A stretch of DNA of 4,513 nt from the IMG/VR virus record IMGVR_UViG_2706794687_000010. One strand, 5' to 3'. The translations under genes were made by a program, and so were the position numbers. Below the pieces are notes generated by a model. That model did no database searches and had not been told where the DNA came from. It worked only from the letters and a program-made list of their open reading frames with translations. Of the stretch, positions 1,327-1,802 are shown piece after piece; position 1 is the stretch's first letter; every line of letters starts with the position of its first letter. The DNA comes from a virus (lineage: Duplodnaviria; Heunggongvirae; Uroviricota; Caudoviricetes).

Positions 1327-1469
1327 AGACATGTCCTTTCGAATATTTTGATTTACCCCTTTTGAGAGGGTGACCGGGCGCTCAAAACCGTCGAAAGTCG
1401 GCGGGCGTATTTCCATTGCTGGTATTGTATTAGCCGCACACCCGGTCATAAACCAAGAATTCTGGACAC

Positions 1470-1497
1470 AAAAAAACCACATGGCTATCGGGTGTGG
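1470..1497 (-). terminator. weak terminator-like or attenuator-like hairpin plus U7 in the ORF6N leader
   Basis: Minus-strand RNA pairs CCACA (1493-1497) with UGUGG (1477-1481) around an 11-nt loop, followed by UUUUUUU (1470-1476). The stem is short and the loop large, so efficiency would be low. It lies between the promoter at 1533-1561 and the ORF6N start. Confidence 0.3.
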
Positions 1498-1532
1498 ATA
1501 CCGCTTTCGAGGTGTTTTGAGCACCGCGGGGA

Positions 1533-1561
1533 AATGTAAACTGCAAACCTGAAACTGTCAA
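1533..1561 (-). promoter_or_regulatory. strong sigma70-like promoter (-35 TTGACA, 17-bp spacer, -10 TACATT) upstream of the ORF6N gene
   Basis: Minus-strand reading gives TTGACA (1556-1561), a 17-nt spacer and TACATT (1533-1538). The -35 is a perfect consensus. The predicted start is near 1526, about 200 nt upstream of the ORF6N start codon. Confidence 0.5.
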
Positions 1562-1687
1562 CACCGTCAGGTTCCAATCATCGGGTGGTGAGACGCACAG
1601 GGTTGGAACTACCGGGAAACCGACCGGCGAGCTTTTCAGCTCCCCCATGCGCCCCACCATAATTCAGATGTGCGCGTGCATACGACA

Positions 1688-1713
1688 ATAAAAAACACGC
1701 TCGCGGCGTGTGT
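1688..1713 (-). terminator. intrinsic terminator, candidate tR' (the Q-dependent late terminator)
   Basis: Minus-strand RNA forms ACACGC-CGCGA-GCGUGU (6-bp stem, 5-nt loop) followed by a U-run (UUUUUUAU). It lies about 55-80 nt downstream of the predicted PR' start. Confidence 0.6.
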
Positions 1714-1772
1714 CTGTCGCGGTCTCTATCCGGGGTTCCAATCCCGACGCCAGATTTTGCTGGCGCGTGAGG

Positions 1773-1802
1773 AATATAGCCCCGGACAATGTGTCTGGTC
1801 AA
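1773..1802 (-). promoter_or_regulatory. candidate late promoter PR' directly after the Q stop codon (-35 TTGACC, 18-bp spacer, -10 TATATT)
   Basis: Minus-strand reading gives TAG (Q stop) GTGC TTGACC (1797-1802), an 18-nt spacer and TATATT (1773-1778). The position matches the lambdoid Q-PR'-tR' layout. Confidence 0.5.

Follow-up and report, generated by a model that had tools for sequence, protein, structure and literature searches.

We analysed a stretch of 4,513 nucleotides of viral DNA (Duplodnaviria; Heunggongvirae; Uroviricota; Caudoviricetes; IMG/VR record IMGVR_UViG_2706794687_000010), hereafter the window, in which all genes, and likewise the features discussed below, lie on the minus strand. 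The interval between the stop of the Q antiterminator gene (position 1807) and the start of a gene for an ORF6N-domain protein (position 1332) very probably consists of two tandem antisense-RNA modules of the type found at the immI locus of phages P1 and P7, which control an antirepressor gene and most likely keep it silent in the prophage. In the immI design, a sigma-70 promoter drives a short leader that carries two boxes, a1 and b1, and ends at a leaky terminator; a structured antisense RNA is cut from the read-through transcripts, with an element b′ in a hairpin loop and an element a′ in the 3′ junction; and second boxes, a2 and b2, follow, b2 lying on the ribosome-binding site of the antirepressor gene. 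Module 1 would be an isrK plus C4 unit preserved as a remnant, and module 2 a complete unit in which an RNA of the sRNA-Xcc1 family (sRNA, small RNA) replaces C4. The analysis shows to which families the RNAs belong, where the boxes lie, how they covary and which genes surround them; from this we infer processing, repression and decoy action.

The window was scanned with the Rfam covariance models at their curated gathering thresholds. Four matches in the interval were full-length, on the minus strand and above threshold (Table 1), and, as a positive control, the same models found the annotated a1/b1 region and c4 of P1. The features named by the original prediction, which had been made from the letters alone, were all present at their positions on the minus strand. 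The module 1 leader scored above the thresholds of both the isrK and the c4-a1b1 models and has its own promoter and intrinsic terminator: the promoter noted after Q agrees with the consensus at 10 of 12 positions, and the terminator scan called the hairpin that follows it at 1711-1695, with a U-run to 1690. Homology of the module to the prophage Gifsy-1 starts at the -35 hexamer of the isrK promoter (PisrK), and the Gifsy-1 homologue of this unit has been defined experimentally (PMC4825925), which bears out the view that its promoter and terminator are real. The C4 RNA folds with a minimum free energy of -44.9 kcal/mol (z = -5.0). Its a′ and b′ elements are placed as in the annotated c4 of P1 and are complementary to the upstream a1 and b1 and to an a2 immediately downstream. 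The GGU that marks the cleavage site in P1 is present at 1658-1656, as a candidate RNase P site. Hfq binding by IsrK and its activation of an antirepressor in trans have been demonstrated in Gifsy-1 only (PMC4825925).

The original prediction had singled out a 10-mer, GGTTCCAATC (GAUUGGAACC as RNA), that is repeated exactly at 1570-1579 and 1734-1743, the latter copy inside the loop of a CGGG/CCCG hairpin, and has an inverted partner, TTGGAAC, at 1603-1609; our fold places the hairpin in the same way. The two copies are the a1 and a2 target boxes of C4, and the inverted copy is a′. The repeat had been taken to exceed chance. Shuffling supported this only at the borderline (at least two motif matches with at most one mismatch in 6 of 200 shuffles; by our own estimate, any 10-mer repeats within 340 nucleotides by chance with a probability of about 0.05), and it is the comparative evidence that shows the repeat to be real. 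The a1, a′ and a2 elements read UUGGAAC, GUUCCAA and UUGGAAC in the window and in Escherichia coli EC12, and UUGGCGU, ACGCCAA and UUGGCGU in Nil2 and Gifsy-1, a three-way compensation, and the b1/b′ pairs also change together between these two groups. An exact complement of a′ is found both at -82 to -88 and at +3 to +6 in all 46 of the parsed C4 loci, which represent 7 a′ alleles. The motif search in related prophages that had been suggested thus finds complementarity conserved, but not the letters. As far as the alleles compared here indicate, the motif is kept as a pairing and not as a sequence, as would fit the specificity boxes of an antisense RNA; of the two natures proposed for it, an RNA element or a protein-binding site, the former is the one that stands.

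An AUG stands directly 5′ of the closing stem of C4 (1660-1658, minus strand). It opens an open reading frame (ORF) of 76 amino acids (1660-1430) that ends inside the Xcc1 RNA, and orf45 of Gifsy-1 begins at the equivalent AUG.

Module 2 opens with the second promoter of the original prediction, again with 10 of 12 consensus positions. Both of its hexamers are kept in E. coli EC12, and other Xcc1 modules have a sigma-70-like promoter of their own at an equal distance from the leader, that of Nil2 being annotated as a promoter. These two are the only promoter-like sites between 600 and 2300, where shuffled sequences gave a mean of 1.2. The hairpin-2 loop and the 3′ junction of the Xcc1 RNA (which we take as its counterparts of b′ and a′) are complementary to boxes on both sides of the RNA, with the order of the boxes kept, and the downstream loop box, b2′, covers part of the ribosome-binding site of a gene of the antirepressor type: it overlaps the Shine-Dalgarno sequence AAGGA, 4 nucleotides ahead of the ORF6N start codon. 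The ORF6N protein is 49% identical to the antirepressor AnrP of Gifsy-1 and 54% identical to the N-terminus of Nil2 AntB. In close relatives, the loop CUACUUG occurs with the box CAAGUAG, CUACUGA with UCAGUAG, and CUAGUUC with GAACUAG. The C4 and Xcc1 RNAs share an outline in which an AUG precedes a long closing stem that encloses two internal hairpins, and both have a variable loop, a variable junction and an ACCC tail. The AUG directly 5′ of the Xcc1 closing stem in the window (1450-1448, minus strand) is in frame with ORF6N, with no intervening stop. An antiterminator pairing, GCGG/CCGC, beside b1 was also considered; it is visible in P1 and in leaders of the Nil2 type, but is not conserved in the window.

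Whole-molecule RNAduplex comparisons of the RNAs with their flanks gave long, uninformative duplexes, and we therefore used exact-complement searches with controls across loci. A loose core pattern served to collect Xcc1-like RNAs in viral contigs, and a stricter one in bacterial genomes; each hairpin-2 loop was then searched for a perfect complement of at least 7 nucleotides in its own flanks and in label-permuted flanks (5000 permutations for the viral set). The 58 distinct loops from viral contigs had such a complement upstream in 39 cases, downstream in 31 and on both sides in 27, as compared with permutation means of 3.6, 1.7 and 0.9, respectively, and a maximum of 6 for both sides. In the bacterial genomes, an independent set with 75 distinct loops, the corresponding numbers were 58, 33 and 25, and the permutation means were 3.0, 1.0 and about 0. 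The junction element matched its own flanks much as the loop did (viral set). At related loci, the downstream loop complement lies at +26 to +37, fused to a Shine-Dalgarno sequence (for example, ..AGGAG), and the start codon mostly follows 6-11 nucleotides past it; the junction complement is found 10-12 nucleotides upstream of this loop complement, and the upstream copies have the same order. A U-run separates the upstream boxes from the Xcc1 RNA at 37 of 41 loci, and the AUG directly 5′ of the stem is kept at 29 of 41. The genes 3′ of Xcc1 belong to the ORF6N, P22_AR_N, AntA, KilA-N, Bro-N and Rha families, all of the antirepressor type.

Table 1. Features of the window and their coordinates.
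Feature	Position	Strand	Basis and remarks
Module 1 promoter (PisrK-like), TTGACC-18-TATATT	1802-1773	minus	Promoter scan; predicted start about 1766
IsrK-like leader sRNA (c4-a1b1 equivalent)	1766-1690	minus	Rfam, terminator scan, fold
isrK (RF01394)	1766-1690	minus	77.5 bits; gathering threshold 50
c4-a1b1 (RF03163)	1779-1727	minus	50.1 bits; gathering threshold 46.7
a1, UUGGAAC	1741-1735	minus	Within the 10-mer 1743-1734, CGGG/CCCG hairpin loop
b1, GAGACCG	1726-1720	minus	8 nucleotides after a1
C4 antisense RNA (RF01695)	1664-1581	minus	71.0 bits; gathering threshold 45; full-length model
b′, CGGUUUC	1622-1616	minus	C4 hairpin-2 loop
a′, GUUCCAA	1609-1603	minus	C4 3′ junction; the inverted partner of the 10-mer
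a2 box, GAUUGGAACC	1570-1579, core 1577-1571	minus	Directly 3′ of C4
Mosaic junction	1551-1526	minus	C4-module homology stops at about 1552; Xcc1-module homology begins at 1525
Module 2 promoter, TTGACA-17-TACATT	1561-1533	minus	Promoter scan; predicted start about 1526
Module 2 leader (IsrK analogue)	1526-1470	minus	a1′, b1′, weak hairpin, U7
a1′, CUCAAAA	1521-1515	minus	Displayed by the hairpin GGUG-CUCAAAA-CACC
b1′, UCGAAAG	1510-1504	minus	After the a1′ hairpin
Weak hairpin CCACA/UGUGG	1497-1477	minus	Followed by U7, 1476-1470
sRNA-Xcc1 (RF02221)	1447-1364	minus	77.4 bits; gathering threshold 53; full-length model
Xcc1 hairpin-2 loop, CUUUCGA	1397-1391	minus	
Xcc1 3′ junction, UUUUGAG	1387-1381	minus	
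a2′, CUCAAAA	1366-1360	minus	Downstream target box
b2′, UCGAAAG	1342-1336	minus	Overlaps the Shine-Dalgarno sequence AAGGA, 1339-1335
ORF6N start codon	1332-1330	minus	
ORF6N-domain gene, 189 amino acids	1332-763	minus	Pfam PF10543; read as the regulated antirepressor-like gene
Q antiterminator gene, 128 amino acids, 933W/21 type	2193-1807	minus	Pfam PF06530, E = 2e-52; upstream of the modules, not part of them
Late control region (PR′-qut-tR′) matching this Q	745-657	minus	Aligns to the annotated 933W pR′/qut/terminator
PR′	-35 TTTACG 745-740; -10 TATCCT 723-718	minus	
tR′ strong hairpin and U-run	687-666	minus	Terminator scan; fold z = -3.3 (late region)
IS3-family transposase ORF fragment	4100-4513	minus	First in transcription order
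DnaB-like helicase gene		minus	After the IS3 fragment in transcription order
Small ORF, then N-run		minus	Between the helicase and Q genes
Four tRNA genes	573-263	minus	ARAGORN

The original prediction had read the two promoter-terminator units as tandem PR′-tR′ late regions, only one of them the true Q-utilisation site, brought together at a mosaic of late regions. We regard this as highly improbable. Unit 1 does begin 5 nucleotides after the Q stop and soon meets its terminator, both units combine a good sigma-70 promoter with a hairpin and U-run after it, and all the late genes lie downstream of both; position alone, however, is not diagnostic, and the homology evidence contradicts this explanation. 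The homologue of the annotated 933W pR′/qut/tR′ is found at 745-657, sharing with 933W TTTACGATCGTAAAAA, TAAGAGTGGTTAC and the AACCCGCCGATG.GCGGGTTTTTTT hairpin, and the same element stands after ORF6N in two related prophages of E. coli (L003 and L004) as well, whereas 1466-1802 has no similarity to a 933W-type PR′/qut. Nor do the units travel with the Q gene: 933W, whose Q is 79% identical to that of the window, has no isrK, C4 or Xcc1 after Q in the Rfam scan, and units occur at a distance from Q in Nil2 (nin region) and in P13374 (upstream of antB2), while in Gifsy-1 the isrK/C4 unit stands behind an unrelated Q of the 82 type. All three RNAs, moreover, match Rfam families of another kind. 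Since the PR′ homologue follows the ORF6N gene, an antirepressor cassette of about 1 kb (1802-763), as judged from these alignments, separates Q from its cognate late promoter. The least probable of the alternatives, in our view, is that a protein such as a repressor, Q or an integrase binds the 10-mer as DNA, or that the 10-mer is left over from a tRNA T-arm or attachment site. We did observe that GGTTCCAATCC is similar to the T-arm consensus GGTTCGAATCC, and three copies of the motif fall within 175 base pairs; but ARAGORN finds tRNAs at 263-573 only and none at the motif, one copy is inverted within a structured RNA, and the other two keep fixed distances from that RNA at all the parsed C4 loci. 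Conservation of complementarity without conservation of letters fits RNA pairing and not a protein site.

Several points weigh against the two-module interpretation. The evidence for this sequence is computational throughout. Module 1 has no GAAACCG-like b2 box or Shine-Dalgarno sequence after a2; a CGGTYTC in the ORF6N coding region (1026-1032) was examined as its b2 and judged a chance occurrence. The second hairpin and U7 of the original prediction exist but make a weak terminator: the hairpin has 5 base pairs and an 11-nucleotide loop and was not called by the terminator scan, and the module 2 leader folds no better than its shuffles (z = +1.1), although the stem covaries among relatives (CCAC/GUGG versus CCGC/GCGG). 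The Rfam C4 model gives no match at 1447-1364 even at E <= 1, and Rfam lists no clan for RF02221, so that the module 2 RNA would be one that works like C4 and not a filed member; the resemblance thus concerns architecture and target logic and is not a demonstrated homology of the RNA core. The Xcc1 loci of Xanthomonadaceae (genomes L130, L135, L137, L145, L149, L164, L179 and L189) have an upstream complement, at -76 to -83, but none within 55 nucleotides downstream, and their target, if there is one, is located elsewhere. An Xcc1-like subgroup with the junction CCAUCGGAAU (L006, L015, L038, L052, L065 and L071) shows complementarity to neither flank. Because of these two exceptions, the flank-pairing rule is not universal in the Xcc1 family. 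The Xanthomonadaceae loci also speak for the explanation that unit 2 encodes a free-standing Xcc1 sRNA that acts in trans, as described for Xanthomonas, with incidental flank matches and an unrelated neighbour gene; sRNA-Xcc1 is described in the literature as trans-acting, controlled by HrpG/HrpX and linked to virulence. We consider this improbable, as loop and junction are complementary to their own flanks at fixed positions, for many loops and far above the permuted controls in two data sets, with the downstream box on a Shine-Dalgarno sequence ahead of antirepressor-type genes. A more serious competitor, still unlikely as the principal mechanism, is the model of the Gifsy-1 authors, in which a translated leader ORF that opens at the AUG before the C4 or Xcc1 stem, alternative messenger RNA folds and translational coupling mainly control the antirepressor and a processed antisense RNA is of minor importance. 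It draws on mutational and tagging data for orf45 in Gifsy-1 (PMC4825925), and the frequent AUG 5′ of the Xcc1 stem, in frame with ORF6N in the window, is in line with it. On the other side, the same study detects a stable processed RNA, STnc1160, from the region, C4 of P1 is a proven antisense repressor processed by RNase P, and the leader ORFs differ in length and frame among loci, whereas covariation is seen in the pairing boxes. The two models are compatible with each other, and the alternative folds and the translated orf45, which overlaps the C4 region, may be part of the truth.

The antisense-module interpretation also gives a meaning to the mosaic junction. Intact relatives with the module 1 specificity (L342, L351 and L356) have a2, GGTGGTGATAGTTTA, a b2 box GAAACCA, a Shine-Dalgarno sequence and an AnrP-like gene. 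In comparison with these, the b2 box, ribosome site and gene start of module 1 have been lost by recombination, with module 2 and the ORF6N gene in their place. The junction proposed by the original prediction is thus retained, at about 1551-1526, but it joins two antirepressor-control cassettes and not two late-control regions. The tandem form is rare: among the 102 unique C4 loci of the viral sample, two (L007 and L054) have it, as does E. coli EC12, where the two modules have different box alleles that still match inside each module. The sister prophage L003 shows one intact module, in the order Q - isrK - C4 - ORF6N.

In the mechanism that we propose, the Xcc1 loop CUUUCGA would pair with the UCGAAAG on the ORF6N Shine-Dalgarno sequence, and the junction UUUUGAG with the upstream CUCAAAA. 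By analogy with P1, the processed Xcc1 RNA would block translation of the antirepressor in the lysogen. The short terminated leaders, which carry the same boxes, would by analogy with IsrK of Gifsy-1 be decoys that titrate the antisense RNA and turn the gene on, so that the ratio of leader to antisense RNA would set the switch. The orphan C4/IsrK pair of module 1 could act in trans on related phages that share its allele, or on read-through transcripts that extend into module 2. Neither module has boxes complementary to the antisense RNA of the other.

The components of this system are known Rfam families, and control of antirepressors by C4 is textbook knowledge for P1; the tandem arrangement is unusual. 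As a broader and more tentative proposal, to which we give somewhat less than an even chance, the whole sRNA-Xcc1 family is a second structural class of C4-type immunity RNA that has not yet been published. Xcc1 RNAs may be cis-encoded antisense RNAs, cut from a leader transcript and flanked by decoy (a1 b1) and target (a2 b2) boxes; the loop box may lie on the Shine-Dalgarno sequence of antirepressor-type genes in phages across Proteobacteria; and the short leaders may be IsrK-like anti-antisense RNAs, with the loop alleles as immunity specificities. The literature mentioning sRNA-Xcc1, among which the original 2011 paper was not covered, calls the RNA trans-acting or unexplained and contains no reading of it as a C4-type regulator, and such a reading appears to be unreported in the literature searched. 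It would give the widespread sRNA-Xcc1 family a testable function, namely to control antirepressors by RNA and thereby prophage induction and immunity to superinfection; if it is true, covarying loop alleles behave as immunity types. For the window itself, the results correct an annotation error, in that the promoter and terminator right after Q in these prophages are not PR′, and the cassette between Q and PR′ has to be reckoned with when the regulation of toxin and lysis genes is mapped in Stx-like phages. An orphan C4/IsrK pair with boxes that remain complementary, as in this tandem arrangement, could perhaps police related phages in trans.

Outside the modules, a perfect 14-base-pair palindrome, TTTACGATCGTAAA, spans the -35 hexamer of the PR′ homologue (718-745, minus strand) and is kept in 933W (L005, 12667-12694), L003 (about 6315) and L004 (about 5517); it might be a binding site for this type of Q. 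The IS3-family transposase fragment adjoins the region upstream of the DnaB-like helicase gene, and for this reason the prophage may have been rearranged around 4100-4513. The N-run comprises 41 bases (2260-2300), where the IMG/VR contig L054, 100% identical to both window pieces that flank the run, has 256 bases (2374-2629); coordinates to the right of the run are thus too close together when set against the actual DNA. In complete E. coli genomes, megablast detected no full-length identical copy, the top match having 95% identity over 77% of the query. Within the tRNA cluster, ARAGORN called 497-573 (minus strand) tRNA-Met (CAT), and RefSeq labels the L003 homologue tRNA-Ile; the gene is probably ileZ-like, with a lysidine-modified CAU anticodon. 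Directly before the cluster, a promoter-like site, TTGCAG-17-TATTAT (583-611, minus strand), resembles the annotated tRNA promoter pT of 933W. Rfam matches to Trp_leader (660-733), sR58, YrlA and Plastid-ycf2 (on the antisense strand of the tRNAs) scored under their gathering thresholds and were set aside as chance or as the tR′ terminator. In 933W, Rfam also matches STnc100 and AsxR just 3′ of stxB (L005, 14778-15037), unrelated to the interval between Q and ORF6N.

Of the known systems, PR′-tR′ of 933W likewise has a constitutive promoter after Q whose transcript is terminated at once, and in Stx phages this short transcript is the sRNA StxS (PMC7547250); its counterpart in the window is the element at 745-657, and it is unrelated to units 1 and 2 in both sequence and structure. 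The CI RNA of phage P4, with seqA and seqC, resembles the modules in being an RNA processed from a leader that pairs with repeats on both of its sides, and seqA has been regarded by the IsrK authors as the structural counterpart of IsrK (PMC4825925). By description, the outcome in P4 is premature transcription termination of replication genes, unlike the occlusion of a ribosome-binding site. The Xcc1 RNA of the window belongs with RF02221 by a covariance-model score well over the threshold. In Xanthomonas, sRNA-Xcc1 is known from integron cassettes, where it is located upstream of symE, and a paper on APSE phages noted a copy upstream of an ORF6N gene in some of them; unlike the Xanthomonas RNA, that of the window seems to be encoded in cis and to regulate the gene after it as an antisense RNA.

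The closest experimental precedent for module 1 is isrK-orf45/STnc1160-anrP of Gifsy-1 (Hershko-Shalev et al. 2016), which also lies directly after Q and has homologous isrK, C4 and antirepressor sequences. There, PisrK is active, and the IsrK terminator is leaky, so that the remaining transcription continues into orf45-anrP; STnc1160 comes from the orf45 region, IsrK in trans boosts anrP translation more than 100-fold, and AnrP induces the prophage (PMC4825925). In our scan, the source region of STnc1160 is C4 by Rfam. Gifsy-1 differs from the window in having one intact module with the allele ACGCCAA, a Q of the 82 type and no Xcc1 module.

With immI of P1 and P7, the window shares the order and spacing of the boxes, the placement of a′ and b′, an a2 directly 3′ of the RNA, a constitutive-type promoter upstream, an antirepressor gene downstream and phage-specific alleles; module 2 and the intact relatives of module 1 also share a b2 on the ribosome-binding site. 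The P1 record gives promoters, a1 (UUGACAG), 7 nucleotides, b1, the 77-nucleotide C4 RNA and then, 3 nucleotides on, a2, followed by b2 on the icd ribosome-binding site and by ant; the sequence of P1 places a′ (CUGUCAA) in the 3′ junction of C4, which is single-stranded, and b′ in the loop of hairpin 2. The window differs in having no icd and no C1 operator, in its ORF6N/AnrP-type target in place of Ant1/2, in its setting between Q and PR′ of a lambdoid prophage and in its tandem modules, the first without b2; module 2 differs further in that its RNA escapes the C4 covariance model. After b1, the P1 leader (L126, about 285-320) has a hairpin with a large loop, a U-run and GUGUCC, nearly identical to 1465-1497 of the window. 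This sharing of hairpin, U-run and GUGUCC between the leaders of P1 and module 2 hints that the C4 and Xcc1 module types share ancestry despite their different RNA cores.

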